A DNA stretch of 64,000 bases from Patescibacteria group bacterium (GTDB lineage: Bacteria; Patescibacteriota; Minisyncoccia; Phycocordibacterales; UBA9973). Both the position numbers and the translations under genes were made by a program. Position 1 is the stretch's first letter; each line of letters begins with the position of its first letter. The DNA lies in contig JAZJXT010000004.1 of assembly GCA_040390725.1 (NCBI GenBank), positions 30,026 to 94,025 of the forward strand, in the 5' to 3' direction. Below the pieces are notes generated by a model. It saw only the letters and a list, made by a program, of their open reading frames with translations, was not told the origin of the DNA and did not search any database. This document shows positions 20,783 through 60,435 of this stretch, in pieces.

Positions 20783-23700
20783 ATGATATCGCGTATATAT
20801 GTGGCGACAAAAGTTAAAGACAGCCGGGCTTTGGGCTTTATGAAGTCTTTTAAAGGGCTGGGTTTGTCTGGAAAAGTCGCAAATGTTGCAGTGCTTGATT
20901 CCTATTTGATTGATTCTGATATATTTAAAGAAAACTCCAAAGAAATGATAATGAGGTCAGCCGGAGCTTTGACTAATCCAATTTTAGAGAAATTTTCTAT
21001 AAATGAATTGCCGGCGGATAAGGATTTTAATTATGTTATTGAAATAGGATTCTTGCCGGGGGTGACGGACAATATAGCGCATACGGCAAAAGAAACTATT
21101 TCAGATTTATTAAAACTTAAAGATGATGCAAGGCTGGAAATTTATACTTCAAAAGTTTTTTTAATTTCCGGAAGCATAAATGTAAAAGATATAGAAAAAA
21201 TCGCTTCTTCACTCTACAATCCTTTGATTGAGCGCGCATATATTGCAAGTGCAAGAGAAATAAAACAAATAGGCGGTTTGCCTTTAGAGACTCCGCAAGT
21301 TATTTTGCCGGATCAAAAATCAGTGATAAATGTATCACTCCGAGCGCCTGACGAAGAGCTTGTTAAAATAGGTAGTGAAGGCATAATGGATGAAAATGGA
21401 AAAAGGCGCGGTCCACTTTCGCTCGATTTAGTTTCAATGAAAGTCATTCAGGCACATTTTGAAAAAATGGGACGCGACCCTCGAGATATTGAAATAGAAT
21501 CTTTGGCGCAGACATGGTCTGAGCATTGCAAGCATACTATTTTTGCAAATCCGATAGATGATATCAAAGACGGTTTATATAAAACTTATATAAAAGGCGC
21601 GACGAAATTAATCCGTGAACAAAAAGGAAATAAAGATTTTTGTGTTTCTGTTTTTTCCGATAATGCCGGCGGAATTATTTTTGATGATAATTATTTAGTA
21701 ACGCATAAAGTAGAAACTCACAATAGCCCTTCGGCACTTGATCCATTCGGTGGATCTATCACAGGCATTGTTGGAGTCAATCGCGATACAATTGGTTTCG
21801 GCTTAGGCGCGAAGCCTGTCGCGAATGCTTATGGATTTTGTTTTGGAGAACCCTCGGATACAAGGGCATTATTTTTGGATAAAGAAAAAAAACAAAAAAT
21901 GTTTTCTCCGAAAAGAATAATGGAAGGTGTTATAAAAGGCATAAATGCTGGGGGGAATTGTTCTGGCATTCCGACAGTTTCAGGTTTTGTAAAATACGAT
22001 GATAGGTTTCGGGGTAAGCCATTGGTCTTTGCCGGCACAGTCGGACTTATTCCAAGAGAAATAAATGGTAAACCTTCTCACGAGAAAAAAGCGCAAGCGG
22101 GGGATTATATCGTAGTTGTCGGTGGGCGAGTCGGAGCTGACGGTATACACGGTGCTACATTTTCATCAGTTGCGATGGATTCCAAATCTCCGGCTGCTGC
22201 AGTACAAATAGGCGACCCTATAACTCAGAAAAAATTAAGTGATGCAATAGTAAAAGAAGCTCGTGATATGGATTTGTATAACAGCATTACCGACAATGGT
22301 GCCGGAGGAATTTCTTGTTCCATCGCAGAGATGGCTCGAGAATGTAATGGCGCAAAAGTTGAATTAGAAAAAGTGCCGTTGAAATATCCAGGGTTACGAC
22401 CTTGGGAAATTTGGATTTCAGAATCACAAGAGAGGATGACTTTGGCTATCCCTCCAAAAAAGTGGGAAGTTTTTAGAAAATTAATGGAGAGCAGAGGAGT
22501 GGAGGCGACGGTAGTCGGTGAATTTACTGATTCCGGGAATTGCGTTGTGAATTATAATGGTAAAAATATTATGGAAATGACTCTTGATTTTCTTCATAAT
22601 GGATTGCCAAAAAGGCAATTAGAAACTACACCAGTTATACATACTTTTCCTGAACCAAAAATAACAAAAGAGTCTCGTGCAAAAATTTTAGAAGAATTAT
22701 TATCAAATAATAATATAGGCGGATCATCTTTTATTGCTGAACAATATGATCACGAAGTGCAAGCTTCCTCTGTCCTGAAGCCTCTCTCGGGTGCGGGTAA
22801 AATAAATACTGATGCGCAAGTTTTCGCTCCTGTGCTCAGCTCAAAAAAGGGCGTAGTAGTTTCTACTGGTGTGTATCCCTCTTATGGGGACATCAGTACT
22901 TACCATATGGCATCTTGCGCATTAGATACTGCTGTCAGGAATATTATTTGTGCCGGAGGTACGCTAAGCCATTTAGCAATACTTGATAACTTTTGCTGGT
23001 GTTCATCAGATGATAAAGTTCGCCTGGCAGAACTCGTGGATGCAGTGAAGGCTTGTTATAAATACGCAGTAGGCTACAGCACTCCGTTTATTTCCGGAAA
23101 AGACAGTATGTTTAATGATTTCAAAGGTTATGATGAAAAAGGAAATCCAATAAAAATTTCTATACCACCGACATTGCTTATATCCGGCATAAGCGTCACG
23201 CAAGATATTTCAAAAACTATATCTCCTGAATTTAAAAATGCAGGAGACATTATTTATTTATTGGGTGATACATATGATGAAATGGGTGCGAGTGAATATT
23301 TTAAATTATTAGCTAAAAAAGAAGTCCACCCCGCCTTAAAAGGCACCCCTCAAGAGGGGAATTTATCAATCGGTAGTAATGTTCCGCAAGTTGATTTAGG
23401 AAAAAATCTAAAAACTTATTTAGTATTAGAAGATGCAATTAAAAAAGAATTAATAAATTCCGCAATTTCTCTAAATTCCGGTGGTTTGGCTGTGGCTTTA
23501 GCGAAAGCCTCAGTAGGCGGAATGTTGGGATGCAAAGTAAATATTAAAAATATACCCGGAAATAATTCCTCAGATGATGCGAAATTATTTTCTGAAAGCC
23601 AAGGTAGAATTTTAGTTTCCATATCACAGGAAAATGTTAAAAAATTTGAAAAGATAATTCTGGCAATACCGCGAGCAGAACTCGGTAAAGTCACTAAAAA

Positions 23701-23803
23701 CGGAAAGTTTGAAATTGTGAATAATAAAAATAAAACAATTATCAAAACAGATATAAAGAAATTAAAAAAGGCTTATCATAGTTTTTCAGAAAGTATGAAA
23801 TAA
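20783..23803 (+). CDS. purL: Phosphoribosylformylglycinamidine synthase subunit PurL with a ~200-aa N-terminal PurS-like extension
   Basis: Linker motif WSEHCKHTIFANPI and duplicated AIRS-like ATP-binding domains (DNGAGGISCSIAEMA). 1006 aa, between small PurL (~740) and large fused PurL (~1300). Confidence 0.9.
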   Translation: MISRIYVATKVKDSRALGFMKSFKGLGLSGKVANVAVLDSYLIDSDIFKENSKEMIMRSAGALTNPILEKFSINELPADKDFNYVIEIGFLPGVTDNIAHTAKETISDLLKLKDDARLEIYTSKVFLISGSINVKDIEKIASSLYNPLIERAYIASAREIKQIGGLPLETPQVILPDQKSVINVSLRAPDEELVKIGSEGIMDENGKRRGPLSLDLVSMKVIQAHFEKMGRDPRDIEIESLAQTWSEHCKHTIFANPIDDIKDGLYKTYIKGATKLIREQKGNKDFCVSVFSDNAGGIIFDDNYLVTHKVETHNSPSALDPFGGSITGIVGVNRDTIGFGLGAKPVANAYGFCFGEPSDTRALFLDKEKKQKMFSPKRIMEGVIKGINAGGNCSGIPTVSGFVKYDDRFRGKPLVFAGTVGLIPREINGKPSHEKKAQAGDYIVVVGGRVGADGIHGATFSSVAMDSKSPAAAVQIGDPITQKKLSDAIVKEARDMDLYNSITDNGAGGISCSIAEMARECNGAKVELEKVPLKYPGLRPWEIWISESQERMTLAIPPKKWEVFRKLMESRGVEATVVGEFTDSGNCVVNYNGKNIMEMTLDFLHNGLPKRQLETTPVIHTFPEPKITKESRAKILEELLSNNNIGGSSFIAEQYDHEVQASSVLKPLSGAGKINTDAQVFAPVLSSKKGVVVSTGVYPSYGDISTYHMASCALDTAVRNIICAGGTLSHLAILDNFCWCSSDDKVRLAELVDAVKACYKYAVGYSTPFISGKDSMFNDFKGYDEKGNPIKISIPPTLLISGISVTQDISKTISPEFKNAGDIIYLLGDTYDEMGASEYFKLLAKKEVHPALKGTPQEGNLSIGSNVPQVDLGKNLKTYLVLEDAIKKELINSAISLNSGGLAVALAKASVGGMLGCKVNIKNIPGNNSSDDAKLFSESQGRILVSISQENVKKFEKIILAIPRAELGKVTKNGKFEIVNNKNKTIIKTDIKKLKKAYHSFSESMK

Positions 23804-23804
23804 A

Positions 23805-25457
23805 ATGGAAAATAAAAATTGCCAAAATTGCAAGAAAGATTTTACGATAAATAAAATTGAACTTACTCAATACGCAAAAATTAACTTAGTTATTCCTGAT
23901 ATTTGTGTTCCATGTCGATGGAAACATCATATGGCTTTTTGGCCGTTTGGTAAATTTAGACAAGGGAAGTCTGATCTTTCAGGGGAAAGACTCATAACAG
24001 TTCTTCCAAATAATGCTAGATATCCTATTTTTACATCAAAAGAATGGTGGAGTGATGCTTGGGATCCGGCATCCTACAGTCAGGAATATGATGAAAATCG
24101 ATCTTTTTTTGATCAACTTAAAGAATTACAAGAGAAAGTTCCTCGTCCGCATCAGCAGGGAGCTCAAAATACTGATTGTGACTGGTGCGACGATGCATGG
24201 GAATCAAAAAATTGTTACCTTTCTCGTTCGACGAAAAAAGCTGAAAATTTACTCTACGGATATCGCGCTATTGAAGTAAAAGATTCAATAGACATATCGC
24301 ATGTTTTTACTTTAGATCAATGCTATGATTGCACATACTGCTTTAGATCTTATAATTTACTTTTTTCAAAAAATTGCCGAGATTGTATGGAGAGCGCTTT
24401 TCTTTTTGATTGTCGTAATTCGTCAAATTGTTTTATGTGTTGGAACTTGCGAGGCAAATCGTATTGCATAGAAAATATGCAATACACAAAAGAAGAATAT
24501 CAAGAAAAAATGAAGTCGATTAATCTCGGTTCGTATTCCGAGCTTGAAAGATTTAAAAATCGTTATGCGGAAATCTTGAAAGAAAATGCCGTTCATAGGG
24601 AAAATTTTAATGTTAAAACATATAATTCCACCGGAACCTATATGTCTGATTGCAACAACTGCACAAATGTATTTTTTTGGGAGGATTCAGAAAATTGTAT
24701 AAATTGTTTGCGCGGACTGAAAACCAAAGACTCAATCGACATGACTGGTTGTTGGTATGTTGAAGTTTCCGGAAACAATAGTTGTTGTACTAATTCTTAC
24801 GACCTTAAATATTCTATTTGGTGTGATGGAGCTAAGTACTCAGAATATTGCGATCAATGCCTCGAGGTGGATTATTGTTTCGGTTGCATCGGCTTGCGCA
24901 AGAAAAAATATTGCATTTTAAATAAACAATATACCAAAGCAGAATACGAAGTTCTTATAGAAAAAATTATTTCTGACATGAAGGCTCGCGGTGAATACGG
25001 AAAATTTCCGCCATATTCTTTGGGCTTATGTCCATACAATTTTTCTACCGGAGCAATTTATTTTCCGGAAGTTACCAAAGAATACATAAAAGAAAGAGGA
25101 GGGTATTGGGAAGAAGATAACGGGCAACAGGCGGAGGGATTGCCCACCTCCGAGCTCCCGGATTCTATTTCTGATGTGGATTCTTCGATTACCAGACAGG
25201 CTCTCGTCTGTCCCGTAACCGGCTGGAGGTACAATATAGCCGAAGCCGAATTAGCATTTTTGAAACGAAAAAATATTGCATTACCTAGGTTGCATTTCGA
25301 TGTACGTACTAAAAAACGATTACTTACTATTAGTCAAACAAAAAGTGAACCTTATGTCTGCACCTACTGTTCGAAAAATATTATCGCTTATTATCCAAAA
25401 GATTGGGGATACAAGAAAATAGCCTGCGAAGAATGTTATAAAAAGGAAGTTTATTAA
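23805..25457 (+). CDS. Cysteine-rich protein with N- and C-terminal zinc-ribbon knuckles and internal C-x2-C repeats; paralog of 58738..60435
   Basis: N-terminal NCQNCKKDF...CVPCRW; C-terminal CTYCSK...CEECYKKEVY; two internal repeated halves each ending K(S/K)YCIxNxQYTKxEYE. Start is 2 nt after the purL stop. Confidence 0.6.
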   Translation: MENKNCQNCKKDFTINKIELTQYAKINLVIPDICVPCRWKHHMAFWPFGKFRQGKSDLSGERLITVLPNNARYPIFTSKEWWSDAWDPASYSQEYDENRSFFDQLKELQEKVPRPHQQGAQNTDCDWCDDAWESKNCYLSRSTKKAENLLYGYRAIEVKDSIDISHVFTLDQCYDCTYCFRSYNLLFSKNCRDCMESAFLFDCRNSSNCFMCWNLRGKSYCIENMQYTKEEYQEKMKSINLGSYSELERFKNRYAEILKENAVHRENFNVKTYNSTGTYMSDCNNCTNVFFWEDSENCINCLRGLKTKDSIDMTGCWYVEVSGNNSCCTNSYDLKYSIWCDGAKYSEYCDQCLEVDYCFGCIGLRKKKYCILNKQYTKAEYEVLIEKIISDMKARGEYGKFPPYSLGLCPYNFSTGAIYFPEVTKEYIKERGGYWEEDNGQQAEGLPTSELPDSISDVDSSITRQALVCPVTGWRYNIAEAELAFLKRKNIALPRLHFDVRTKKRLLTISQTKSEPYVCTYCSKNIIAYYPKDWGYKKIACEECYKKEVY

Positions 25458-31960: not shown

Positions 31961-32052
31961 TAACAATATACGTACCCTACCGAAAACATATATTGTGCGA
32001 CACTGTATTATCTTAATTCCCCAATAAAATAGAGCTTTTAAAAAAGTAAATA

Positions 32053-32508
32053 TCAACACGAACTAGAGAGCGTATACCCTGCACGTTCTGCTTCTTCTTT
32101 TGTTTGGAAATAAATTTTGTTTTCTTCTTTGAGGTTATTGCCGGAAGTACAACCATTTGTATAATATTTGTGCCCTCTTTTTGAGGCAAAAAAATTACCA
32201 GATTTTGCACTAATATCTGTATCTTTTTGAGTTGATTTTATGGTGCTTAATACCCTTTTCGAGCCTATATTAGCCTCATTTAATCCATTTATAGCTGATT
32301 CTTGGCCCATTAAAGCATTTGCAGGCATAGTTAGGTGTGTTGAGCTTAAATCAGCCACAGATGTATTCTTAGACATTCTACCTAGCCCAAACGAGCTTAA
32401 ACCTACTAGAATAACGATTATAACCGTCAAAATATCTTTCCCCTTTTCAGTTCCGATAAAATACTTGATTTTTTCTATGTAATCGTTTATACTCATATCT
32501 GTATTCAT
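32053..32508 (-). CDS. Membrane-anchored protein with C-terminal Ada-like zinc-binding-type domain
   Basis: N-terminal TM segment. The C-terminus (KRGHKYYTNGCTSGNNLKEENKIYFQTKEEAERAGYTLSSSC) matches the pattern of the Ada N-terminal metal-binding fold (YH..C......I...F.S..EA...GY..C). Confidence 0.45.
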   Translation of the reverse strand: MNTDMSINDYIEKIKYFIGTEKGKDILTVIIVILVGLSSFGLGRMSKNTSVADLSSTHLTMPANALMGQESAINGLNEANIGSKRVLSTIKSTQKDTDISAKSGNFFASKRGHKYYTNGCTSGNNLKEENKIYFQTKEEAERAGYTLSSSC

Positions 32509-35915: not shown

Positions 35916-37241
35916 TTATTGTGGCAAAAGAGCATCTTCGGTATAAGTATTTTCCGGATCCCAAAGCATCCAAGAATTCAATCCGGCATCATCTACGGCT
36001 TTTATTTGAGCTCGAACCATTTCCGGAGTGTACTGCGCACCCAAATTAAAATCTTGCAACCAGGGTCGTAGTTTTAGTGAATCAATGCCTGCTGTCTTTA
36101 ATCTTTCAACTGCTTTTTTCATAGAAAAATTTACAATTTCATAAGGCTTTGTCGCAGGATTTTTATATCCATAAGTGTCAGAAGCAAAATGTGAAGGATA
36201 ATCCATCGGCGCCACATAATCAAAATAAGTAGATACTGGAATTAACATTTGCCCGATGCCTAAGTCATTGTCTTCGGTGGTGGCGAGCCCAAAAATATCT
36301 GCAGATATTTTTGGGCGTAAAGTTACTTCATTATTTACCCCCGCAAAACTATCATGCAAGTATGTAAAAAAACTTTTCATAACTTCTGCGCGAATTTTTC
36401 CATTTGAAACAGGATAATAAATATCTTTCAAATCTCCATCTGCAGGATATCGAATATAGTCAAAATTTAATTCATCAAAACCATCCATATAGGCTTCATG
36501 ACCAATGGCTACAACGTAATCCCAAACTTCTTTTGTTCCAGCATCAAGCCAATAAGTGCACAGCTTTTCTTGATGTCTCCTTATGGCTCTTTTACATTTA
36601 TCATCAGCCCATAATGCAGTTTTATCTGAACGTTTTTTTACAGCAAACTCACTATATTTCTTTGCAAAATACGGATCCTGAAAAGTAGCAATACGTCCGA
36701 TAACATAAATATTATTTTTATGAAGTTCATCTATAAAACTTTTTATATCTTTAACTCTTTTTTCAACAGAACCCATTTTTATAAGTTCCGGATTTGAAAC
36801 TGAAAAAGAAATATGCCCGGTGGAATCCTTCACATCTATCACAACAGCATTTAGCTCTGTACGTTTTATCATATCAAAAATTTTATTTCTAAAAGATAAA
36901 TTCCCTGCCACCCAACTAGACATATATACAGCTTTAACGGGAGAAGGAGTATCAATGTGTGTGACGACTACGGCATCTTCGGGATTTACTTTTACTGTCG
37001 TAGTAGTATTTACACTAATGGCATTTTCCGGAGTACTTACAGCCTGGGGTAATTCATTGTTAGGCAAAATAGATTCATGATTTGACTGACCTAATTTTGC
37101 ATTATATTTGAAGTTATAAATTTCCGGTATAATAAAATAAGCCAGAACCACAAGCAAAAAACCTGCGAGAAATATCAGGAAAATTCTTTTTTTCTTAATT
37201 ATTTTCTTCATTAAAATTTCTATTTTCTGAAAAAGTATCAA
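35916..37241 (-). CDS. Putative glycoside-hydrolase-like TIM-barrel protein (YngK/DUF4015-like), membrane-anchored
   Basis: N-terminal TM; the GFDELNFDYIRYP motif is characteristic of the putative GH-like DUF4015 family. Confidence 0.45.
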   Translation of the reverse strand: MILFQKIEILMKKIIKKKRIFLIFLAGFLLVVLAYFIIPEIYNFKYNAKLGQSNHESILPNNELPQAVSTPENAISVNTTTTVKVNPEDAVVVTHIDTPSPVKAVYMSSWVAGNLSFRNKIFDMIKRTELNAVVIDVKDSTGHISFSVSNPELIKMGSVEKRVKDIKSFIDELHKNNIYVIGRIATFQDPYFAKKYSEFAVKKRSDKTALWADDKCKRAIRRHQEKLCTYWLDAGTKEVWDYVVAIGHEAYMDGFDELNFDYIRYPADGDLKDIYYPVSNGKIRAEVMKSFFTYLHDSFAGVNNEVTLRPKISADIFGLATTEDNDLGIGQMLIPVSTYFDYVAPMDYPSHFASDTYGYKNPATKPYEIVNFSMKKAVERLKTAGIDSLKLRPWLQDFNLGAQYTPEMVRAQIKAVDDAGLNSWMLWDPENTYTEDALLPQ

Positions 37242-42518: not shown

Positions 42519-43337
42519 TTAATCAAGTTCTGCAATTATCTTGTTTTTATTAAGTATTTTAGAAAACTGAACCCAGAGAAATAAAAAAATACCTACGACA
42601 AAATAAGAAATTAATGTTCCCCACCAAATGCCATATAAGGGGAAAACTACCCCGGCGGTAAATCCATAAAGAATCAAACCAATAGCCCCCGGAAAGAAAA
42701 ATGATTTACATATTGACGGTATTACTTTTTTACCGTGGGCAAAATAATATATAAAAAGAGCAGTTGAGTTCGATGCGGGGAAATTTGCAAAAATTCCGCC
42801 CCAAGCATTGCCGAACAATTTAGCGAGAATTACTGTCGTAGCTATGACGCTTCCCGCTAGAAATGAACGAAGTAATATATGTTTTATATTAAAATCTACG
42901 GGGGTAATTTCTGTCTCTTGGGGCAATTTACGAATTAAAAAATAACATACAACAAAAAATGGTATACCGATAATTAATGCTTGCAAAAAAGTGCTCGGGG
43001 TAAAAGTAAGAATTAGAAATGTGCAAAAACCCCAAATGACAAAAGACAATATAGCTCCCAAAATAAAATTTCTCTTCTGAGAGAAGAAAGCGAAAACTAA
43101 AACAAAAATATAAAAAGATATTAGCAGTCCAGCTGTTGCTGTGACGACTGCTTGCGATACATCCATAGGACTTTTAGTCAGACCTATAAAGAAAAGACTG
43201 ACTGCGAGAGTAGTCGGAATTGTAAGTACTATTCCGCGATATTTTAATGAGACTCTTTCGGCAATTAATGTTATTAACCCAATAAGAAAACCTCCGACAA
43301 TAAATGAAACTATAACCTGTAAGACAAATAGATTCAT
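42519..43337 (-). CDS. Polytopic integral membrane protein (about 8 TM helices), unknown function
   Basis: 272 aa, almost entirely hydrophobic helices. No transporter signature recognised. Confidence 0.5.
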   Translation of the reverse strand: MNLFVLQVIVSFIVGGFLIGLITLIAERVSLKYRGIVLTIPTTLAVSLFFIGLTKSPMDVSQAVVTATAGLLISFYIFVLVFAFFSQKRNFILGAILSFVIWGFCTFLILTFTPSTFLQALIIGIPFFVVCYFLIRKLPQETEITPVDFNIKHILLRSFLAGSVIATTVILAKLFGNAWGGIFANFPASNSTALFIYYFAHGKKVIPSICKSFFFPGAIGLILYGFTAGVVFPLYGIWWGTLISYFVVGIFLFLWVQFSKILNKNKIIAELD

Positions 43338-44152
43338 TTTTGTAATTTTTTTAACTTTACTGATTTTTTAACTCTTTTCTTTGATTCTTTGATATGTGAA
43401 ACTTTTGGCAAATTTTCCGGCATTGTGCCACCGAGATTTTTTATGGTGTTTCGAACTTTTTCACCGACTTGTTTATGCGCCATATTTGCATTATCCTGAC
43501 CTTGGGTATTTTCTCGTTTTAATTTTGCTTCTGTTTGCGTAGCTCTAAATAAATTCGCGGCAAGTTCCTCGCTGTTCATATGATCTAAAATTAAATCTTT
43601 TTCTTTTAGTCCTTTTTTATTTTTAATATCTTTTTGACGCATTCCGCCGTAAAGCCCCATATATCCGAAGTCTTGAAAATTGGCGTAGTTGGTCACGCCG
43701 GATTTTTTGGCGACGCTTGCCAGATTTTTATTATGCTCTTTCATTTCACCGCGCAAGAAAATTCTTTTTTGATCTTCAACTAAATTATCTTGCGTTTCTT
43801 GGCGATGAGTTTGAATTGCGAAATATGTTTGAGCTTTTGCAATTTCGACTTTTCTCGGGTCGCCATTTTGTGCTATGAGATAGCAAGCGTAGCGGGAAAG
43901 GTGATAGTCTTCTATAATTTGACCATTTATTTCTCCATATTGGTTGCGGGATTTTTGGGGTTCGCTCACGCCGGCGAAATGCTCATTTATATTTGCACCG
44001 CTATTTTTACACGCTTCTTTTGCTCTTTCTATTGCTCGCAAAAATTTACCATATTCCGTATATCCCAGAATTTTATATAAATCACGAGCGCTCCAATATT
44101 CATATCCATGCTCGTTTATTTTTTTAATTTTTTCAAAAAGATTTTCTTTCAC
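43334..44152 (-). CDS. DinD / Bro-N-domain-like protein (phage antirepressor-like) with basic C-terminal tail
   Basis: HGYEYWSARDLYKILGYTEYGKFLRAIERAKEACKNSG matches the Bro-N/DinD pattern. Lys-rich C-terminus. Confidence 0.5.
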   Translation of the reverse strand: MKENLFEKIKKINEHGYEYWSARDLYKILGYTEYGKFLRAIERAKEACKNSGANINEHFAGVSEPQKSRNQYGEINGQIIEDYHLSRYACYLIAQNGDPRKVEIAKAQTYFAIQTHRQETQDNLVEDQKRIFLRGEMKEHNKNLASVAKKSGVTNYANFQDFGYMGLYGGMRQKDIKNKKGLKEKDLILDHMNSEELAANLFRATQTEAKLKRENTQGQDNANMAHKQVGEKVRNTIKNLGGTMPENLPKVSHIKESKKRVKKSVKLKKLQK

Positions 44153-47088: not shown

Positions 47089-48990
47089 TTATTTTTGCAA
47101 TAGCAATGCTTTTTTACCTATATCTCGCCTATACTGCATACCTTCAAATGATATTTTTTTGATAGCTTCATATGCCGTGTTCAAAGCTTCTTGTAATGTA
47201 TCACCAATAGCAGATACTCCCAGCACTCGCCCACCGTTGGTGACTAAATTATTATTTTCCATTTTTGTACCGGCGTGAAAAACAACAACGTTTTTATTTT
47301 CTTCCGCTTCTTTAACTTCAAAAATAATTTTCCCTTTTTCATAATCCCCCGGATATCCGGCTGAAGCTATTGCAATATTACAGGCAAATAAATCTTTCCA
47401 TTTTATTTCCATTTGATTTAATTTTTTATCAACACAAGCATTTATTATTTCCAATAAATCACTATCAAGCAAACGCATATAGCTTTGTGTTTCAGGATCG
47501 CCAAAACGAGAATTAAATTCAATTATTTTCGGTCCGTCTTCTGTGATAATAATTCCAGGGAAAATTATTCCTTCAAATAATGCACCTTCATCACGCATGC
47601 CCTTTAATACCGGCGCGATAATTTCTTTTTCAATTCTATTTTTCATTTCTTCATTTATAAATGGCAATGGAGCAATTGTTCCCATGCCTCCTGTATTTAA
47701 CCCTGTATCATTTTCACCAATTCTTTTGTGGTCTTGCGACAATGGAAACATCGAATAAGTTTCACCGTCTGATAATGCATGCACAGAAATTTCAATTCCC
47801 GTAAGGAATTCTTCTATGACTATTTCCCTGCCTGATTCACCAAAAACTTTTTTAATAAAAATATCTTGCAAGGCTTTTTCAGCTTCTTCTTTATTTAAAC
47901 AAATCAAAACACCCTTACCAAAAGCTAGTCCATCCACTTTTATGACTACTGGAAATTTTTGCGTATTTAAATACTCCAGTGCCTTATCGTAGTCATCAAA
48001 ACTTTCCCATCGTGCTGTAGGTAAATTATGCCTCTTCATAAAATCTTTTGCATAAACTTTTGACCATTCAAGTTTTGCCGCCATTTTTGTCGGCCCCCAA
48101 ATACGTAAATTCTCTTTCTTAAATTCATCCACTACACCAAGCGCCAAAGGGTCATCAGGCACAGCTAAAGTCAAATCTATTTTTTCTTTTTTTACAAAAT
48201 CAATAAGCCCAGCTATGTCTGTGGCTTTAATATCAATATTTACACCTATTTCAGCCGTACCGGCATTCCCCGGAGCAAAATAAATCTCACCCGCCAAAGG
48301 CGACTGCGCTATTTTCCATCCGATAGCGTGTTCCCTGCCGCCAGACCCTATTATTAAAATTTTCTGCTTACTGATTTCGCATAATTTTTCTAAAACTTCC
48401 ACGTAAAGCTTATTTTCTTTTCTTTTTAATCTTGAGTATAAAGAAATAACATTATCGTTTTCTTCAGCTTTCTCATATACTCTACCAAGAACTGGCCCAA
48501 AGTCGAAGTTTAAAGTCAAAAAATGTATTGAAGAGCCGGCATAAGTTGATCTTTTATCCAAAACATTTTGTATCGCCTTTTCGGTCAGCATTCCTTTATT
48601 CCAAAGTGACTCTGTGCCGTCAGGATTTTTAAATACTCCATCCTCAGCATCTGGAATAATTCCCGGATGTAAATTTATAATTTTATTCGGATACCCAGTA
48701 ATAACTTCATCTAAAATTATTTTTTTCCAACCGCATAAACAAATAAAATCAGGATTTAATTTTTGTAAAAGCGGTAAGAGATTTTCTTTCTCCGCGCAAA
48801 TTTCAATTTTTAAATTGTGCCTTTTTGCATGCTCTAACCCCAAAGCTTTTTCGGTATCGGAAACTACCGCGCAAATCTCCGCATTTATTTTACCTTGTTC
48901 TATGCCTTCTATTATGGCCTGCAAATTTGTGCCTGTACCGGTGTCAGAAATCAAAACAGCTAATTTTATTTTATTCTTTTGGGACATCAT
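47089..48990 (-). CDS. purND: Bifunctional phosphoribosylglycinamide formyltransferase / phosphoribosylamine--glycine ligase (PurN-PurD fusion)
   Basis: N-terminal ~200 aa is PurN-like (KLAVLISDTGTGTNLQAII ... LHPG). The remainder is a PurD ATP-grasp (KILIIGSGGREHAIGWKIAQSP ... GAGTAEIG). One continuous 633-aa frame. Confidence 0.85.
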   Translation of the reverse strand: MMSQKNKIKLAVLISDTGTGTNLQAIIEGIEQGKINAEICAVVSDTEKALGLEHAKRHNLKIEICAEKENLLPLLQKLNPDFICLCGWKKIILDEVITGYPNKIINLHPGIIPDAEDGVFKNPDGTESLWNKGMLTEKAIQNVLDKRSTYAGSSIHFLTLNFDFGPVLGRVYEKAEENDNVISLYSRLKRKENKLYVEVLEKLCEISKQKILIIGSGGREHAIGWKIAQSPLAGEIYFAPGNAGTAEIGVNIDIKATDIAGLIDFVKKEKIDLTLAVPDDPLALGVVDEFKKENLRIWGPTKMAAKLEWSKVYAKDFMKRHNLPTARWESFDDYDKALEYLNTQKFPVVIKVDGLAFGKGVLICLNKEEAEKALQDIFIKKVFGESGREIVIEEFLTGIEISVHALSDGETYSMFPLSQDHKRIGENDTGLNTGGMGTIAPLPFINEEMKNRIEKEIIAPVLKGMRDEGALFEGIIFPGIIITEDGPKIIEFNSRFGDPETQSYMRLLDSDLLEIINACVDKKLNQMEIKWKDLFACNIAIASAGYPGDYEKGKIIFEVKEAEENKNVVVFHAGTKMENNNLVTNGGRVLGVSAIGDTLQEALNTAYEAIKKISFEGMQYRRDIGKKALLLQK

Positions 48991-50368
48991 GATTTACTTC
49001 CCCCGCTCTTTCTAATAAAGGTATGGGGTACTCTCCATTAAAAAATGACAATGATAGATGATCCTTTGGAAGACCGATTGATTCCACTAATCCATCCAAG
49101 GAAAGAAAACAAAGTGACGTAGCTCCTAAGAATTCTCGAATTTCTTCTACAGTTTTATGTGAAGCAATTAAATCTTTTTGTTTCGGCGTATCAATACCAT
49201 AAAAATCTGGGAATTTTACCGGAGGAGAAGAAACTAGAAAATGAACTTCTTTAGCGCCTGCCTTAAAGAGTGCTTCGACTAATCTCTTGCTAGTAGTCCC
49301 TCTCACAATGGAGTCATCAATCACAGCAATTTTTTTACCGGATAAAATCTCCGGTAAGGGAATTAACTTGAGAGCAACACTGTGCTGGCGAGATGCTTGA
49401 TCAGGTTCGATAAATGTCCTGTGCACATAACGATTTTTCACCAAAGCCATTTCCAAGGGAATACCTGAAGCCTCGGAATAACCAATAGCTACAGGAGTAG
49501 CTGTATCAGGCACTGGTACGATAATATCAACATCGACTTTGCATTCACGAGCAAGAATTTTACCAAAATTTTTCCTTACATCATAAATAAGTTTACCGGA
49601 AAGAACACTATCAGGCCGAGCAAAATAAACATATTCAAAGACATCATGTTTCGGCGTAGGCTCTGCGAGCTTTATACTTTGTAAACCATTTTCATTTACT
49701 AAAATCATTTCTCCGGGTTCTACTTCTCGCAAGAATTCAGCGCCGATAGTTTTTAATGCGCAAGTTTCAGAAGCTACAATATATCCATCTCCAATGGCAC
49801 CTAAAACCATAGGACGCATACCATATGCATCACGAATAGCAACCATATTATTTTTATCCATCATTGTAATAGAAAATGAACCGGTCAAGAGCGGAAAAAC
49901 TTTTGTAACGGCTTCTGATAATGTCAAACCTTGTGACAAATAAAAAGAAATAGCATCAGCTATTAATTCAGAATCAGTACGGCCTTTTTTTAAAATATTT
50001 TTGGAAGATAAAAATTCTTGCAAAGCTTTTACGCTAGGTAAATTGCCATTGTGCGCCAAAGCAAAATAATTATTTTCATCGAGCACAGGCTGAGCATGAT
50101 CAAGAGCAGTTCCGCCGGAAGTCGAATATCTGTTATGCCCTATCGCTATATGCCCCGATAGAGAATTTATAGCTTCTTCCGTGTAAACTCCAGACACGAG
50201 CCCTGCGCCCTTGTGTGTGTAAAATTTATCTCCATCACTCGTAGTGATACCGGAAGCTTCTTGTCCGCGATGCTGAAGAGCAAACAAACCAAAAAACGCA
50301 AGCCTAGAAACTGGCGCATTTTTGGCATATATACCGACTATTCCACATTTTTCTTTTAATTCTTCCAT
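48971..50368 (-). CDS. purF: Amidophosphoribosyltransferase
   Basis: N-terminal nucleophile MxxKCGIVGIY, Ntn glutaminase domain and PRTase domain (VVPVPDTATP). Confidence 0.9.
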   Translation of the reverse strand: MEELKEKCGIVGIYAKNAPVSRLAFFGLFALQHRGQEASGITTSDGDKFYTHKGAGLVSGVYTEEAINSLSGHIAIGHNRYSTSGGTALDHAQPVLDENNYFALAHNGNLPSVKALQEFLSSKNILKKGRTDSELIADAISFYLSQGLTLSEAVTKVFPLLTGSFSITMMDKNNMVAIRDAYGMRPMVLGAIGDGYIVASETCALKTIGAEFLREVEPGEMILVNENGLQSIKLAEPTPKHDVFEYVYFARPDSVLSGKLIYDVRKNFGKILARECKVDVDIIVPVPDTATPVAIGYSEASGIPLEMALVKNRYVHRTFIEPDQASRQHSVALKLIPLPEILSGKKIAVIDDSIVRGTTSKRLVEALFKAGAKEVHFLVSSPPVKFPDFYGIDTPKQKDLIASHKTVEEIREFLGATSLCFLSLDGLVESIGLPKDHLSLSFFNGEYPIPLLERAGEVNHDVPKE

Positions 50369-50378
50369 AATTTATTTT

Positions 50379-51188
50379 TTATTTTCTAAAATAATCAACT
50401 GCGTTTTTAAATAAAATAATACCGTCACCCATTTCACTTTTTTGGGAGCCGAGCTCCCCCTTGGGAGCTCGGCTCCCAAATTTATTCTTTTGCCACAAGG
50501 GACTATGATACGCAAACATTGCGCGTTCCGGATGAGGCATCATTCCCAATACCCTGCCATTATACGCTAAAACTCCGGCTATTGCATAATCCGAGCCGTT
50601 TGGATTTACTTCGGTATTCTGGAATTTACAAATATCACCTTTCGTATAAGTAAAAGCAATTTGTTTATTTTTCTTCAAAATTTTATATTCTTTTGCATCA
50701 GCTATATATCTGCCTTCGCCGTGCGCTATAGGCAAGGAAATTTTCTTAATATTTTTAAGCCAAGGACTAGTACTATTTTCTGTTTTTAGATCCACCCAAT
50801 AATCAATATACAAAGCATTCTTGTTGTGTGTGAGAGCTCCCGGTATAATTCCTAAATTCGTCATTATTTGAAAACCATTACAAATACCTATCGCTAAAGT
50901 ATTACGAGATAAAAATTCCTCTAATTCTTTTGCCAAGTGATTTTTAAATTTATTCGCATAAGCTTTTCCACTGCCCGTATCATCACCATAAGAAAATCCT
51001 CCAGGGAAAGCTAAAATTTGGTATTCCAAAAGCATTTTTGGCTTCGCGATTAGGTCATTTATATGCACAATGTCAGCCTTACCACCTACTTTTTCAAAAG
51101 CATACTTTGTTTCCTCTTCGCAGTTTAAACCATACCCGGAAAGCACTATAATTCTTGGCTTTTTAATTTTTTTTTGGGCTTTTTTCAT
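50379..51188 (-). CDS. purQ: Phosphoribosylformylglycinamidine synthase glutaminase subunit
   Basis: Class I glutamine amidotransferase with catalytic GICNGFQ and HPE triad motif. 269 aa. Confidence 0.85.
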   Translation of the reverse strand: MKKAQKKIKKPRIIVLSGYGLNCEEETKYAFEKVGGKADIVHINDLIAKPKMLLEYQILAFPGGFSYGDDTGSGKAYANKFKNHLAKELEEFLSRNTLAIGICNGFQIMTNLGIIPGALTHNKNALYIDYWVDLKTENSTSPWLKNIKKISLPIAHGEGRYIADAKEYKILKKNKQIAFTYTKGDICKFQNTEVNPNGSDYAIAGVLAYNGRVLGMMPHPERAMFAYHSPLWQKNKFGSRAPKGELGSQKSEMGDGIILFKNAVDYFRK

Positions 51189-51225
51189 CTATACACCATA
51201 TATTAACATTTTTTTTACTTTTCGG

Positions 51226-51354
51226 CTAATACACCTCCTGCTGATAACATTTTTCACAATACACTATTTCCGGTCTTTCCGGAGCATAACTTGTTTCAAA
51301 TTCTACATTGCATCTTGCCCCGCCTTGGCGTGGGTTTTTTGTTTCGTAATTCAT
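51226..51354 (-). CDS. 42-aa zinc-ribbon-like mini ORF, an in-frame internal-deletion derivative of the Cys-rich paralog family (possibly a gene remnant)
   Basis: Not in the ORF track (<60 aa). Translation is MNYETKNPRQGGARCNVEFETSYAPERPEIVYCEKCYQQEVY. The N-terminus matches ...NKTPRQGGINC of 58738..60435 (15 nt identical, cccgccttggcgtgg at 51318-51332 vs 60388-60402). The C-terminus matches its ...EITTSYSPEDQKKYVLYCEQCYQQEMY end. Immediately upstream of purQ, same strand. Confidence 0.45.
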   Translation of the reverse strand: MNYETKNPRQGGARCNVEFETSYAPERPEIVYCEKCYQQEVY

Positions 51355-51391
51355 TTGGTTTTTTTATTTTATAAGTGTATCATATTAATAT

Positions 51392-52087
51392 ATGAAATTA
51401 CATAGATTTATAGGAAAATACGACCTTTCGCAAAAAGAGGTAGAAATCACCGATATTGAAACTATCAAGCAAATAAGGGCTGTTTTGAGACTAGAAGAAG
51501 GTGATAAAATCATACTTTGTGATGGTAGTGGCACAGAAGCAGAAGCTATTATCACTTCCCTTTCTCATAATAAAATCATTTGTGAAATAGAAAAAATACT
51601 CGACACAAATGAACCGGAAAGAAAAGTGAGTTTATATATTGCAATATTAAAAAAAGAAAATTTTGAACTAGCTGTACAAAAAGCTGTAGAATGCGGAGTT
51701 GCCAACATTATACCCGTCATTACTGAACGTACCATAAAAACAGGATTGAATAATGAAAGACTGGAAAAAATAATCCGTGAAGCGAGTGAGCAATCAGGGC
51801 GAAGCATCGTGCCGAAACTTTTTGAAATTATGAATTTTATAGATGCATTAGAAAATGGAAAAAGTGCGGAGGAAAAAATAATTTTTCACTTAGTTGAAAA
51901 TAAATATATGCCCGACAAAAATGCTAATCTTATTAGCATTTTTGTCGGGCCTGAAGGTGGATTCACAGAAAAAGAAATTATTTTAGCGCAAGAATCCGGC
52001 TACACTCCAGCATCCCTAGGCCGACTCACCCTACGCGGAGAAACTGCCGGCATAGTGGCTACCTACCGCGCTGTTAATAAAATATAA
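51392..52087 (+). CDS. rsmE: 16S rRNA (uracil1498-N3)-methyltransferase
   Basis: PUA-like N-terminus and SPOUT C-terminal region (FVGPEGGFTEKEI). Confidence 0.8.
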   Translation: MKLHRFIGKYDLSQKEVEITDIETIKQIRAVLRLEEGDKIILCDGSGTEAEAIITSLSHNKIICEIEKILDTNEPERKVSLYIAILKKENFELAVQKAVECGVANIIPVITERTIKTGLNNERLEKIIREASEQSGRSIVPKLFEIMNFIDALENGKSAEEKIIFHLVENKYMPDKNANLISIFVGPEGGFTEKEIILAQESGYTPASLGRLTLRGETAGIVATYRAVNKI

Positions 52088-54268
52088 TTATTCTAAAAGA
52101 TTCTTAAGAACATCCTCGGGTACTTCGCGAACTTTTGGTGCTGGCGGAGGTGTCGGCGTGGGCGTTGGTCCTGATATTGGTCTTGGTGTCGGCTCAGGCA
52201 CTGATTCAGTTTTCTCGGAAATCAAATCTTTTAATTTATTCATTTCATCAATACTTGCTGAGCGGTCGCCATGTAAAATGACAGGTGGTTGAGAAATTTT
52301 TAAATCACTCAAAGACATAGGTGGAGGTGTCGGCTTTTCTACTATTGAAATAGCCTCGGGTGAAATAGAATTCGATTCAGAAATTTTATTTTCTGATAAA
52401 GTTTTATTTAAAATATCTCGAAGCGCTAAATTTTCTTTTCTAGGCTCTTTTTTAAATATAACAGGTTTTGCAAATGGAGTCTTTATAGAAAAATTTGGCA
52501 AAAGTTTAGAAATATTTTTTAAAGGTGAAGATACTGACGGCTTTATGGTTGGTCTTACCGGTGGTCTAATATTTTTATCAAAAGTTTTTTTAATTTCTAA
52601 AAATGGACTAGGCTTCTTTGGGGCTTGAGGGGCTTTAACCGGTGAAGCATTAACCGATACAGACCTCTCGGTATTTGTAGGAGCGCCTTGATTGCCACCG
52701 CCACCTTGACTCTTGTTTTCAAATTCAATACCTAAATCCGCCAATGGTCTGTAAAATTTTGTTTCATCTTGCTTGATTTGATTCATGGATCCCGAAAGAG
52801 GCTTCAATTCACCTGACTTCATTTTTGCTATACAATCCTTGCAATACACGGGCCTGCCTGGCTGCGGCATAAATGGTACAAAAGTTTCTTTTTTACAAAT
52901 AGAACAAACTGCGGGGAATTTTTCCATACTGCCAGAATCATTGTCGCCACCTACCATCATGCCACTCCAATTATTTATTTCCCTTTCTACTTCTTCTCTG
53001 GATCTGCAATACAAAGCGCGAGAAGACCTGATAACTTCTTCTTCTATTTCTTTAATGCCTGACTTCACCAAGGGTGGCAAAGTCTTTGCAGAAAATGGCC
53101 GGCTCGTAATACCGCCTATCATTAATTTTAAATAAATTCTATAGTTCGGTAAGTTCACGATATCTTGCGGAATAAATTCCGGCTCAAATTCTTTTTCCAA
53201 AAATTCCGCATCATCGGCGCCGACACGAAATACAATCATGGTACCCACGTTACCGAAAACAGAGTCGCGCACATTTGTACTTTCTTTAGTGACAAGCTGA
53301 GCAGTGTATTGGTGAGCAACTGTTAAATTAAGACGATATTTTCGAGCCTCGGAAAGAATAGATGCGAAAGAATCTGTAACGAAATTTTGGAATTCGTCCA
53401 CGTAAAGATAAAAATCTTTACGCTCTTCTTCAGGAATACGAACGCGCTCCATCGCCGCCAGCTGAATCTTTGTAATAATCATACCTCCGAGTAATGCAGA
53501 GTTATCTTCACCGATACGCCCCTTGGAAACATTCACTAGAAAAATCTTTCCTTCATTCATAACATCAAAAACATTTATTGTGCTTTTTGATTGGCCTACA
53601 ACATTTCGAATTATAGAAGTTGAAAGAAATTGTCCGACTTTATTTTGAATCGGAGCAATAGCTTCATTTCTAAATTTATCCTGCCAAGCTTCATATTCAT
53701 GAATCCAAAAAGCCTTGATGACGGGATCTTTTAAATTACTAATTATTTTTTGACGATAATCTTTATCCACTAGCATTCTGGGTATTCCCAAAAGAGTGGT
53801 ATTTGGGGTGTCGAGCAATGCTAAAATAGCGTTGTTCAAAATATATTCCATTCTCGCAGACCAAGCATTCGCCCAAATTTTTGTAAATATTCCCATGAGA
53901 CCGGAAGCCACCAAATGTTTATATTTTGGATCAAGTAATTCCAAAACATTAAAACCAATATGATAATCAACATCTGCAGGATTAAAATAAACAACGTCTT
54001 TCATGCGGTGCGGAGGAATAGCCGAAAGAATACTTTCTACGAGTTCTCCGTGAGGGTCAACCACACAAACACCATCACCATTTATGACATTTTGAATAAC
54101 CATATTGAACATCAAGACAGATTTACCGGTACCGGATTTACCGAGCAGATACATATGCTGGCGCCTGTCTTTTCGCTTGATACCGAAAAGAGTTTTTTTG
54201 TCGCGATAGGTCGTCTGACCTATATATGTCATATCCTTATTGGCTGGTAAATCTTTAAATTCCATCAA
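52088..54268 (-). CDS. P-loop NTPase of the HerA/FtsK/TraD-VirD4 superfamily with C-terminal zinc ribbon and long Pro/Ser-rich low-complexity tail
   Basis: Walker A HMYLLGKSGTGKS, Walker B YLYVDEFQNF, zinc ribbon CSICKK...CKDC, then ~250 aa of PxP-rich tail. No N-terminal TM. Exact family not resolvable by eye. Confidence 0.45.
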   Translation of the reverse strand: MMEFKDLPANKDMTYIGQTTYRDKKTLFGIKRKDRRQHMYLLGKSGTGKSVLMFNMVIQNVINGDGVCVVDPHGELVESILSAIPPHRMKDVVYFNPADVDYHIGFNVLELLDPKYKHLVASGLMGIFTKIWANAWSARMEYILNNAILALLDTPNTTLLGIPRMLVDKDYRQKIISNLKDPVIKAFWIHEYEAWQDKFRNEAIAPIQNKVGQFLSTSIIRNVVGQSKSTINVFDVMNEGKIFLVNVSKGRIGEDNSALLGGMIITKIQLAAMERVRIPEEERKDFYLYVDEFQNFVTDSFASILSEARKYRLNLTVAHQYTAQLVTKESTNVRDSVFGNVGTMIVFRVGADDAEFLEKEFEPEFIPQDIVNLPNYRIYLKLMIGGITSRPFSAKTLPPLVKSGIKEIEEEVIRSSRALYCRSREEVEREINNWSGMMVGGDNDSGSMEKFPAVCSICKKETFVPFMPQPGRPVYCKDCIAKMKSGELKPLSGSMNQIKQDETKFYRPLADLGIEFENKSQGGGGNQGAPTNTERSVSVNASPVKAPQAPKKPSPFLEIKKTFDKNIRPPVRPTIKPSVSSPLKNISKLLPNFSIKTPFAKPVIFKKEPRKENLALRDILNKTLSENKISESNSISPEAISIVEKPTPPPMSLSDLKISQPPVILHGDRSASIDEMNKLKDLISEKTESVPEPTPRPISGPTPTPTPPPAPKVREVPEDVLKNLLE

Positions 54269-58737: not shown

Positions 58738-60435
58738 TCAATACATCTCCTGCTGGTAACACTGCTCGCAGTAAAGCACATATTTCTTTTGATCTTCAGG
58801 AGAATAAGATGTAGTAATTTCCTTTGAGCATTTTGCGCATTTGATAGGCCATAAATTAAATGTATTTCTTTTATTCATTCTATTTTGATGCCGGCAATTA
58901 AAACATTGCGCCGGAAGCGCTAACCTATTTTTCTTGTAAAAAACAATTTCCCTATTTATTAATTTAAAATTCTTCTCGCAACTCTCACAAGTTAAAACTT
59001 CTTTCAGTAAATCATCGTTATAATCATCGGGATTTTTTGGCAATTTTGAAAATTCAATAGTACCCTGTCCTTTAGTGCTCGGTATATTATCTTTCCATAA
59101 AAACCCTTTGTTCTGTGCCTCTTCTTTTGTCAAAGGCATATGTTCATTGACGATGGATTCGTTGTAAGCAAAAGGGCTCATAAAACTCGGAAAGAAATTC
59201 CCCCATTCGCCATTCTTATTCATATGCTCAATTAATTTACTGACCAGAATTTCGTATTCTTGTTTTGAATACTGTTTGTTGAAAATGCAATATGATTTCT
59301 TGCGCAAACCACAACAGCCGAATAAATTATTGGAACCGTAGCAATTGCTGGAATAAAAAACATCATGCGAGTCAACCGCCAACTCTGAGCCGATAATTCT
59401 ACTACTGCCAAGGCAAGTAAGAGCTTGATAACTTTCTTCTACCCCATTACCGGAAAAAGAACAATCATATGAGTTCACGGCTTTTGCAATAATAAAACAA
59501 TATTTGGAATTCTCACCGCCTTTTATATCAAAAGAATTTAAAATATTATGAGAATTATAAATGTGATTGCCGGAAACTTTATTATTGTGCGAACCAAAAA
59601 ATGCGCGCTGGGGAACTTTTGTCCGTAAATTATCCCGTTCTTTTAAAATATAATCTATTGATGATTTTTCAGTTAAAGGATATTTCAGTAAAAAATCTTT
59701 ATACTCTTCCCTTGTGACAGGCTTATTGAAAATATAATAAGACTTATTTACTTGCCCTACGCAACCGATGCAATTTAGACAATTCCGACAATCAAAAAGC
59801 CCTATGCTGTCTATACAACTTTCACACTCTTGGGAATAAAAAAGTTTAGTAGACTCCAGGCAGTCAATGCATTCATAGCAGGATTCGCATTTATAAAGAA
59901 AAATATTATCCACCGACTCACGAGAATTCCAAATAATATATCCATAATCACAATCTTCATCTTCGATACAACCAAAAATTAAATAACAATTTTTTGCTCC
60001 ATAAGCAATGTTTGCATATTCGCAATTTTCACTTTTTGTTTGCATTAAAGCCATATGCGGAACAACATTAAAAAGCTCAGCCAGCTGCTGAAAAAATGAT
60101 TTTGTAAAATCAAAATCTCTGCCATAACTCATCGGCTCCCAATCATCACCCCACCATTCTTCACTGGAGTAAACAGGAAAAAGCGTATCTGGACTATACA
60201 TTGAAACAATCATCTTTCCGCTTTTATCTGATTTCCTTTTATAAAGAGTTTTAAAATTTCTAAAACAAATTCGTAAGCGTTGTCTGCATTCAGGGCAAAT
60301 TTCTGGCACGGGAACCTTCATTCTTTCATAAAATCCAAAATCATCTTTTGTGATTTCAAAATCTTTTTTACAGTTCTGGCAATTTATCCCGCCTTGGCGT
60401 GGAGTTTTATTCTGACTGCTTATATTCATAAACAT
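58738..60435 (-). CDS. Cysteine-rich protein; paralog of 23805..25457 (N- and C-terminal zinc-ribbon knuckles with internal C-x2-C repeats)
   Basis: N-terminal INCQNCKKDF...CPECRQ, C-terminal IKCAKCSK...YCEQCYQQEMY, internal repeats (KCESCYECIDC, ECESCIDS, DCRNCLNCIGC, KKSYCIFNKQYSKQEYE). Start overlaps the grpE 3' end by 29 nt. Confidence 0.6.
   Translation of the reverse strand: MFMNISSQNKTPRQGGINCQNCKKDFEITKDDFGFYERMKVPVPEICPECRQRLRICFRNFKTLYKRKSDKSGKMIVSMYSPDTLFPVYSSEEWWGDDWEPMSYGRDFDFTKSFFQQLAELFNVVPHMALMQTKSENCEYANIAYGAKNCYLIFGCIEDEDCDYGYIIWNSRESVDNIFLYKCESCYECIDCLESTKLFYSQECESCIDSIGLFDCRNCLNCIGCVGQVNKSYYIFNKPVTREEYKDFLLKYPLTEKSSIDYILKERDNLRTKVPQRAFFGSHNNKVSGNHIYNSHNILNSFDIKGGENSKYCFIIAKAVNSYDCSFSGNGVEESYQALTCLGSSRIIGSELAVDSHDVFYSSNCYGSNNLFGCCGLRKKSYCIFNKQYSKQEYEILVSKLIEHMNKNGEWGNFFPSFMSPFAYNESIVNEHMPLTKEEAQNKGFLWKDNIPSTKGQGTIEFSKLPKNPDDYNDDLLKEVLTCESCEKNFKLINREIVFYKKNRLALPAQCFNCRHQNRMNKRNTFNLWPIKCAKCSKEITTSYSPEDQKKYVLYCEQCYQQEMY

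Follow-up and report, generated by a model that had tools for sequence, protein, structure and literature searches.

A 42-codon open reading frame between rsmE and purQ of a Patescibacteria bacterium is probably an in-frame remnant of a multicopy Cys-rich gene family

A short open reading frame of 42 codons (here, the mini-ORF or stub) lies on the minus strand of the window (the whole stretch of 64,000 nucleotides analyzed here), 37 nt from the start of the divergent rsmE gene (51392) and 37 nt upstream of purQ. The initial annotation of this DNA had recognized the frame and translated it exactly. It had also called it a missed gene, which is true of the open reading frame track used there but not of GenBank, where an identical protein is deposited (MES2023631.1, “hypothetical protein V4439_03025”) from a 127,866-nt contig of a Patescibacteria metagenome-assembled genome (MAG). 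The protein is present in the protein collection, and an exact-sequence look-up in the contig index returned no record. The features needed for the analysis are as follows.

51226..51354, minus strand: mini-ORF of 42 codons, MNYETKNPRQGGARCNVEFETSYAPERPEIVYCEKCYQQEVY plus stop codon, probable in-frame remnant of an F-family gene (see below); it includes the peptide stretch MNYETKNPRQGGARC...
51334..51354, minus strand: N-terminal stub MNYETKN, equal to the canonical F N-terminus (MNxETKN/CQNCKKDF), stopping before the first Cys
51314..51333, minus strand: mini-element CCACGCCAAGGCGGGGCAAG, GC-rich and palindromic (read PRQGGA-R), which directly adjoins the proposed deletion junction on its 3' side
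51229..51312, minus strand: C-terminal tail CNVEFETSYAPERPEIVYCEKCYQQEVY, with the second Cys of the first knuckle and the entire second half of a CxxC-x17-CxxC-type (treble-clef) module
51189..51225, minus strand: 37-nt spacer from the mini-ORF stop to the purQ start
51355..51391, no strand: 37-nt divergent intergenic region between rsmE and the mini-ORF, with motif TATGATACACT at 51384-51374 (minus)
50379..51188, minus strand: purQ, heading purQ-purF-purN/D-purE-purM-purC
20783..23803, plus strand: purL (1006 aa), opposite in strand to purQ and about 27 kb away from it, with the GC-skew maximum (at about 32 kb) in between
23805..25457, plus strand: copy 1, a full-length divergent F gene that begins 1 nt beyond the purL stop and precedes mraY-like and ftsW genes
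58738..60435, minus strand: copy 2, a full-length A-type F gene in a GrpE-F-PaaX slot
60385..60405, minus strand: 21-nt insert ACTCCACGCCAAGGCGGGATA (TPRQGGI) in the N-terminal knuckle of copy 2, carrying the second 15-mer (see below)

Judged from its sequence, the mini-ORF descends from a multicopy family of Cys-rich Patescibacteria proteins of 550 to 600 aa (here, family F). At E ≤ 1e-10, the homologues of copy 2 number 4927; they carry the names “hypothetical” or “zinc-ribbon domain containing protein,” and some F members match PF13451, PF23477, or PF02420. Scanning GTDB species genomes for the tail motif yielded more than 560 matches. The best 79 loci together contain about 115 F genes encoding 550 to 600 aa, often two or three in tandem and with several loci per genome. 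The canonical N-terminus reads M(N/K/Q)xETKNCQNCKKDFxIEPEDFxFYEK..., and there are two types of C-terminal end, ...CAKCxxxIxTSYKPEDQKIYKIYCEKCYQQEVY (A-type) and ...LWHRxCMCDKxNHxHxGKCEVEFETSYAPERPEIVYCEKCYQQEVY (B-type). The mini-ORF starts like the family N-terminus, its last 36 residues are those of the family C-terminus, and it sits in the conserved slots of the family (divergent from rsmE and upstream of purQ). N-termini like its own (MNSETKNCQNC and MNAETKNCQNC) are found in L048, L081, and L018. Beyond MNYETKN, the N-terminal zinc ribbon (CQNCKKDFxIExxDFxFYEKxxVPxPxxCPxCR) is absent, as is the central Cys-rich repeat body of about 400 aa, a predicted beta-solenoid in a model of copy 2.

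The F-type C-terminal tail, C-x2-EFETSYAPERPEIVYCEKCYQQEVY up to the stop codon, is present in the mini-ORF. This module is the most conserved part of the family, and 28 of 28 tail residues fit the B-type consensus wherever it is defined, with no degenerate change. In a two-protein BLASTP search, residues 13 to 42 align with residues 534 to 565 of copy 2 (E = 6e-11), and residues 1 to 30 align weakly with the copy 2 N-terminus. Thus, the earlier assignment of the last ~26 residues to the family C-terminus is borne out by an alignment with the last 32 residues of copy 2, and the three remaining Cys residues counted there are indeed present (C15, C33, and C36). The first CxxC pair of the module is reduced to C15, C33xxC36 is intact, and the C15-C33 spacing is 17 residues. 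The tail scores below the curated cutoffs of both zf_Tbcl_2 (PF23477; 18.8 bits versus 27) and TIGR04272 (16.4 versus 36). Among phage-family and defense-system (PADLOC) profiles, the mini-ORF, copy 1, and copy 2 gave no PADLOC match, and a weak match to phrog_15341, of unknown function, was seen for copies 1 and 2 alone.

Residues 7 to 42 of the mini-ORF (NPRQGGARC...QQEVY) correspond without interruption to the last 36 residues of a B-type F protein. The closest example, P0286/L164, ends in ...HFHGAG-NPRQGGARC-EIEFETSYAPDRPEIVYCEKCYQQEVY and is identical to the mini-ORF at 33 of 36 residues and 94 of 114 nt, including an exact 23-nt run, AACCCACGCCAAGGCGGGGCAAG. Another relative, L008 (NPRQSGARC), shares a 27-nt run with one mismatch, and the same insert precedes the last knuckle Cys in L008, L005 (DPRQGGARC), and L020 (IPRQGGASC, with an exact 20-mer). 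Because residues 7 to 42 are contiguous with B-type C-termini, the junction is placed by sequence comparison at K6/N7, with only MNYETK(N) derived from the F N-terminus. The codon of N7, AAC, fits both sides, so the junction shows an AAAC microhomology. An in-frame deletion had been proposed before, and that proposal holds in its essentials, with about 540 codons (rather than about 500) lost from a full-length member, but it had been placed at the wrong site. We therefore consider that the mini-ORF is an in-frame remnant of an F gene of about 580 codons and most probably a product of ordinary decay that serves no function of its own, a reading to which we give a probability of roughly 0.6.

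The initial annotation had instead derived about 15 N-terminal residues, including PRQGG, from a copy-2-like gene, with a homology-mediated join between NCKKDFEITK-like and KCSKEITTSY-like segments. In favor of this version are a 15-of-15-nt identity with copy 2 at an equal distance from the start codon and the independent mini-protein P0133, which does have a knuckle junction (...CQNCKNDF/VKGCENEFETSY). However, only MNYETK(N) of those residues is N-terminal, since the residues from N7 onward match the P0286/L164 C-terminus; PRQGGARC is C-terminal, and the real junction lies about 8 codons upstream of the one proposed. PRQGGARC agrees at eight of eight positions with the C-terminal versions of L164 and L005 but at six of eight with PRQGGINC of copy 2, and the exact nucleotide run continues 3' into GCAAG as in the C-terminal copies and not as in copy 2. 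The stub has a B-type tail and copy 2 an A-type tail, so the stub does not represent a third paralog of the same kind. The copy 2 insert is, moreover, unique among its 120 best homologues. We regard it as very unlikely.

The shared 15-mer, CCACGCCAAGGCGGG, is real and occurs twice in the window, both times on the minus strand (51319-51333 and 60388-60402), whereas dinucleotide shuffles, with two mismatches allowed, predict 0.02 occurrences; the first site had been given one base off, as 51318-51332. What fails is its use as evidence of N-terminal ancestry. The stretch is absent from L041, the counterpart of copy 2 (an F gene in the same GrpE-adjacent slot), in which the flanks are continuous and copy 2 has only 21 nt extra; the comparison with L041 revealed no clean target-site duplication. 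Of the 119 other best homologues of copy 2, none has this 21-nt insert. In relatives, the C-terminal zinc knuckle of B-type F proteins carries the mini-element as an insert (L008, 6004; L005, 6004; L164, about 1008-1028). The same element also occurs in PurQ and DnaK. The exact 20-mer lies in frame within purQ of L109 (525-544) and L110 (5388-5407), and it is found in L020 at 2268-2287; longer versions with arms CCCCGCC/GGCGGGG and variable loops fill that PurQ loop in L093 (about 5385-5420) and L146 (about 5400-5435). The element is inverted in a second PurQ loop in L106, L135, and L161 (near 5060, minus) and lies in the DnaK tail in L011 (about 3500-3525) and L065 (about 4205-4230). Because the motif recurs in frame in unrelated genes, the shared stretch is identified as part of a short GC-rich palindromic element. 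Its form is CC[AC]CGCC / GGCGGGG arms plus CAAG, with a loop of 2 to 8 nt and an overall length of about 20 to 33 nt. A second arm type (CCTCCC..GGGAGG) occupies the same PurQ loop in L084, L112, L129, L155, and L159. We also considered the 15-mer as a plus-strand terminator; the T-run stems from Lys/Asn codons and is missing at other copies of the element, and this candidate was rejected.

The 11-mer GGCGGGGCAAG was located at 12 distinct sites within 1.43 Mb, where 0.09 would be expected (in F, in PurQ at two sites in both orientations, and in DnaK); the motif thus repeats at unrelated sites far above chance and has inverted-repeat arms. In yeast mitochondria, GC clusters include an in-frame insertion in var1, and GC-rich palindromic clusters are deletion hotspots (PMC8811140); the window element is comparable in kind. 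Like mobile GC-rich palindromic elements (REP or GC-cluster-like), it is a palindrome in an AT-rich genome, lies in frame in unrelated genes in both orientations, and has variable loops. Unlike them, it is far shorter, about 20 to 33 nt versus about 30 to 50 and 100 to 150 nt. This likeness of sequence concerns the 15-nt motif and not the whole mini-ORF. A 20-mer scan of viral contigs gave zero matches, and a literature search on in-frame palindromic elements in Patescibacteria and on the Pfam names returned nothing relevant. One might go further and propose that AT-rich Patescibacteria carry undescribed GC-rich palindromic elements of about 20 to 33 nt that spread in frame into surface loops (F, PurQ, and DnaK) and act as recombination sites, that two copies recombined to give the mini-ORF, and that the 42-aa peptide or the F family is functionally tied to formylglycinamidine ribonucleotide (FGAM) synthase; we consider this combined scenario doubtful.

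Other palindromes were seen in coding sequences of the window. Inside purQ (50441-50480, minus), 40 nt form a perfect palindrome (18-bp stem, 4-nt loop) that is in frame and reads FGSRAPKGELGSQ, which amounts to about 10 extra residues relative to the closest PurQ relatives; other relatives have different inserts at the same C-terminal PurQ loop (PRRKASFLRGRQ, SPRHGGVK, and GLPRLNTRRGEG). A perfect 41-nt palindrome (19-bp stem) is present inside rsmE (51910-51950, plus), whose homologues are equal in length; it overlaps the conserved IFVGPEGG motif, as though one arm had been remodeled on the other. A palindrome with a 14-bp stem lies at 36287-36316 inside the gene at 35916-37241.

Because F genes are multicopy with near-identical 3' ends and the source is a MAG, the mini-ORF might be an assembly artifact, in which a full-length F gene collapsed or contigs were joined across repeated F sequence. 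Several observations speak against this. No exact repeat longer than 15 nt connects the region 51189-51391 with other parts of the window, which makes k-mer collapse within the window unlikely. The junction of the stub 3' end with purQ is confirmed by an independent Logan assembly of SRR26324628 (L001), which is identical to the window at 49425-51274 (the last 49 nt of the open reading frame, the spacer, and purQ), and the rsmE/stub junction is as arranged in L029. An artifact is therefore highly improbable.

The rsmE side of the locus is syntenic with L029 and L083, in which a full-length F gene is divergent from rsmE, and the F start in L029 is likewise 37 nt from rsmE. The first 6 to 7 codons, the start codon, and the upstream spacer of the stub match the 5' end of this rsmE-divergent F gene. 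A motif, TATGATACA(C/A)T, is common to the rsmE/mini-ORF intergenic region of the window and the rsmE/full-length-F intergenic regions of L029 and L083, and TATGATACACT looks like a predicted -10 box for one or both of the divergent genes. The 37-nt spacer between the stub and purQ has no recognized homology with the F-purQ spacers of relatives, which are short and variable (2 to 70 nt).

To survey the purQ side, 80 metagenomic purQ loci (68 to 78% identity) were collected, of which 71 are informative. In 36 of these, purQ is directly preceded by an F gene or F remnant; 25 of them have one to three full-length copies, and purL is visible beyond the F genes in 23 of the 36; in the other 35 loci, purL and purQ are directly adjacent. 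Hence, full-length homologues do exist at this position in relatives, either divergent from rsmE (L029 and L083) or directly upstream of purQ, and the association of F with purL and purQ that had been noted is real and widespread, although clustered in part of the clade. In a rough PurQ tree, the window falls in a clade in which purL-purQ adjacency without F is the rule (L084 to L086; L167 at 77%), whereas F-bearing pur operons mostly belong to the other PurQ clade, plus L111. The suggestion that an ancestral full-length copy led the operon is not supported by these comparisons, since F before purQ is internal (purL-F-purQ) and the nearest PurQ relatives lack F. The link between F and the FGAM synthase genes is real and phylogenetically clustered, and it need not be functional. 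Both A-type and B-type F genes occur between purL and purQ (L092 to L163), and F genes are also seen elsewhere in pur operons, between purN and purD (L090 and L123) and between purF and purD (L031). In the window, purN and purD are fused as one open reading frame (47089-48990), and a Bro-N domain protein and a DUF3147 protein (42519-44152) interrupt the run of purine genes between purC and purB. About 210 residues extend PurL at its N-terminus (20783-21412) and have no detectable Pfam match, and no separate purS was found in the window. F or the mini-ORF as a PurS substitute was considered and found unsupported, with no PurS-like domain in the N-terminal 210 aa of PurL or in the upstream gene.

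Two synteny breakpoints (rsmE/stub/purQ and purL/copy 1/mraY-ftsW) coincide exactly with the stub and copy 1, which are on opposite strands and flank the GC-skew maximum near 32 kb. This maximum of the cumulative GC skew is at about 31960-32053, where gene orientation turns from plus to minus, a replication terminus-like arrangement between both breakpoints. A single in-register inversion between the rsmE- and purL-adjacent F genes fits both gene orders. However, the arrangement of rsmE/F followed by mraY occurs in no relative, and copy 1 orthologues lie after GrpE. We therefore rejected the inversion as a full explanation of the layout and keep it as a partial idea. Copy-2-type genes (66 to 69% identity) are found between purL and purQ in relatives (L106, L147, L110, and others), and copy-1-type genes (61% and 57%) are found after GrpE in L056 (865-2508) and L044 (6781-7713). 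The copy 1 and copy 2 slots are thus swapped relative to those of relatives, indicating that slots are conserved while cassettes are exchanged. These patterns point to F paralogs as substrates of rearrangement, and the stub may have arisen by fusion of two paralogs instead of by deletion within one gene. The GrpE-adjacent F gene overlaps the 3' end of GrpE by its first codons, and these codons remain with the slot. F genes recurrently flank genes for a TraD/VirD4-like ATPase, its shorter paralog, GrpE, DnaK, and DnaJ (in many genomes; L004, L029, L053, and others), and the TraD/VirD4-like coupling ATPase of the window (52088-54268) has an internal zf_Tbcl_2 (CxxC-x17-CxxC) domain above threshold.

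Under the decay reading, nearly all of an F-family gene of about 580 codons would have been deleted in frame, leaving the mini-ORF stub. The two gene ends would have been joined at the AAAC microhomology beside the C-terminal GC-rich insert or, alternatively, by recombination between an N-terminal copy of the insert (as in copy 2) and the C-terminal one. Deletion between short direct repeats or at microhomology is an ordinary route of bacterial pseudogene decay. The event was possibly intragenic; otherwise, two F paralogs may have been fused during a rearrangement that parted purL from purQ and brought purQ to rsmE. Because the nearest PurQ relatives have purL-purQ without F, the 3' piece may come from either a purQ-adjacent or an rsmE-adjacent F gene. 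The stub keeps the ancestral start region and is therefore probably transcribed with the purQ operon and translated ahead of it, as a leader open reading frame. Like ordinary deletion pseudogenes, it lost the gene interior precisely, with both ends kept, and there are other partial derivatives in the F family. Unlike them, it is in frame, with start and stop codons intact, and stands at a synteny breakpoint before the operon of an essential pathway.

The partial F derivatives found elsewhere are as follows (slashes mark junctions).

L162: 213 aa, in frame, upstream of purQ
L120/L122: 408 aa, in frame, upstream of purQ
L113: partial derivative of 126 aa
L121 and L125: frame-broken F copies
L011 and L075: short C-terminal F open reading frames
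L003: 50 aa, 5'-truncated
L002: 35 aa, in frame, MNRETKQC/PNEFETSY...
P0133: 55 aa, in frame, ...CQNCKNDF/VKGCENEF..., in two assemblies
P0066: 185 aa, in frame
L070, about 2425-2500, directly after GrpE: F N-terminal tip (MSIKTEQNKIHLQSSVA...) and C-terminal scrap (...CEECYKQNIA, then stop codon) in different frames

The last of these is an out-of-frame counterpart of the stub in the window. From these sequences, the F family appears to decay to remnants repeatedly, its genes being duplicated, shuffled, and deleted. All listed derivatives, in frame or not, have a perfect tail, with the reservation that a tail-based search biases which derivatives are found.

The intact frame and consensus tail of the stub could mean selection, recency, or gene conversion. 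If selection is responsible, the 42-aa product would be a functional microprotein, maintained as a free copy of the treble-clef tail of F; coexpressed with the purQ operon, it might bind zinc by its three Cys residues plus a fourth ligand or as a dimer and compete with or mimic F at a partner. The frame is intact and the tail agrees with the consensus at 100%, and a comparison of the last 26 codons with the stand-alone L003 open reading frame shows 10 codons with synonymous differences and zero with nonsynonymous ones. At least three independent in-frame proteins combine an N-terminal tip with the C-terminal tail (the window, L002, and P0133, the last in two assemblies). Moreover, stand-alone small proteins of Methanosarcina mazei with four Cys residues in a CxxC-x17-CxxC arrangement have been seen by mass spectrometry and bind zinc (PMC12704099). 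The stub resembles these and other TIGR04272/PF23477 proteins in its size, its second CxxC, and its 17-residue spacing from the knuckle Cys to the CxxC; it differs in that its first knuckle has one Cys, it scores below both curated cutoffs, and its metal binding is putative. With the first Cys of the module gone, three of four ligands are left. The mini-proteins were found with the tail query itself, so tails are oversampled, and their junctions and genomic contexts differ among the window, L002, and P0133. Because out-of-frame and frame-broken remnants (L070, L121, L075, and L011) also keep perfect tails, rapid turnover or gene conversion is a better explanation than selection on mini-proteins. 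Neither an orthologue with the K6/N7 junction nor, as a means of testing stub conservation, a PurQ relative closer than 77 to 78% identity was found in the collections searched. A selected microprotein is thus unlikely, although it deserves more weight than any other alternative considered here.

Another possibility is that the region works mainly at the RNA level, providing the pur operon with a structured 5' leader or regulator, and that the open reading frame is incidental. For the 212-nt leader, the predicted folding energy is -39.1 kcal/mol (z = -3.0), and 1 of 200 shuffles was as stable. However, its helices are made of coding features common to full-length F (the GC element and a CCGG..CCGG pair in APERPE), and no Rfam family fits, so that we give an RNA role very little credence. 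In a cmscan of 50800-51800 at E ≤ 1, the sole match was a subthreshold snoRNA model (E = 0.22, 27 bits versus a cutoff of 50); a riboswitch or purine/ZTP-type leader was rejected for want of a curated RNA family match in this interval. A scan of the minus strand at 51100-51700 gave no terminator-like sites.

By itself, the stub, as a probable decay product, carries little weight; it is one more remnant of an uncharacterized family with fast turnover, and it is already in GenBank. As a marker, it links F-family genes to the rearrangement by which purL and purQ were separated, and it suggests that the N- and C-terminal modules of F recombine. If the tail peptide is made and binds a partner, it would offer a minimal handle on the function of F, whose thousands of members lack annotation. 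The stub also led to two further observations, namely, that about half of the related pur operons have one to three F genes between purL and purQ and that tiny GC-rich palindromic inserts occur in frame in several unrelated genes.
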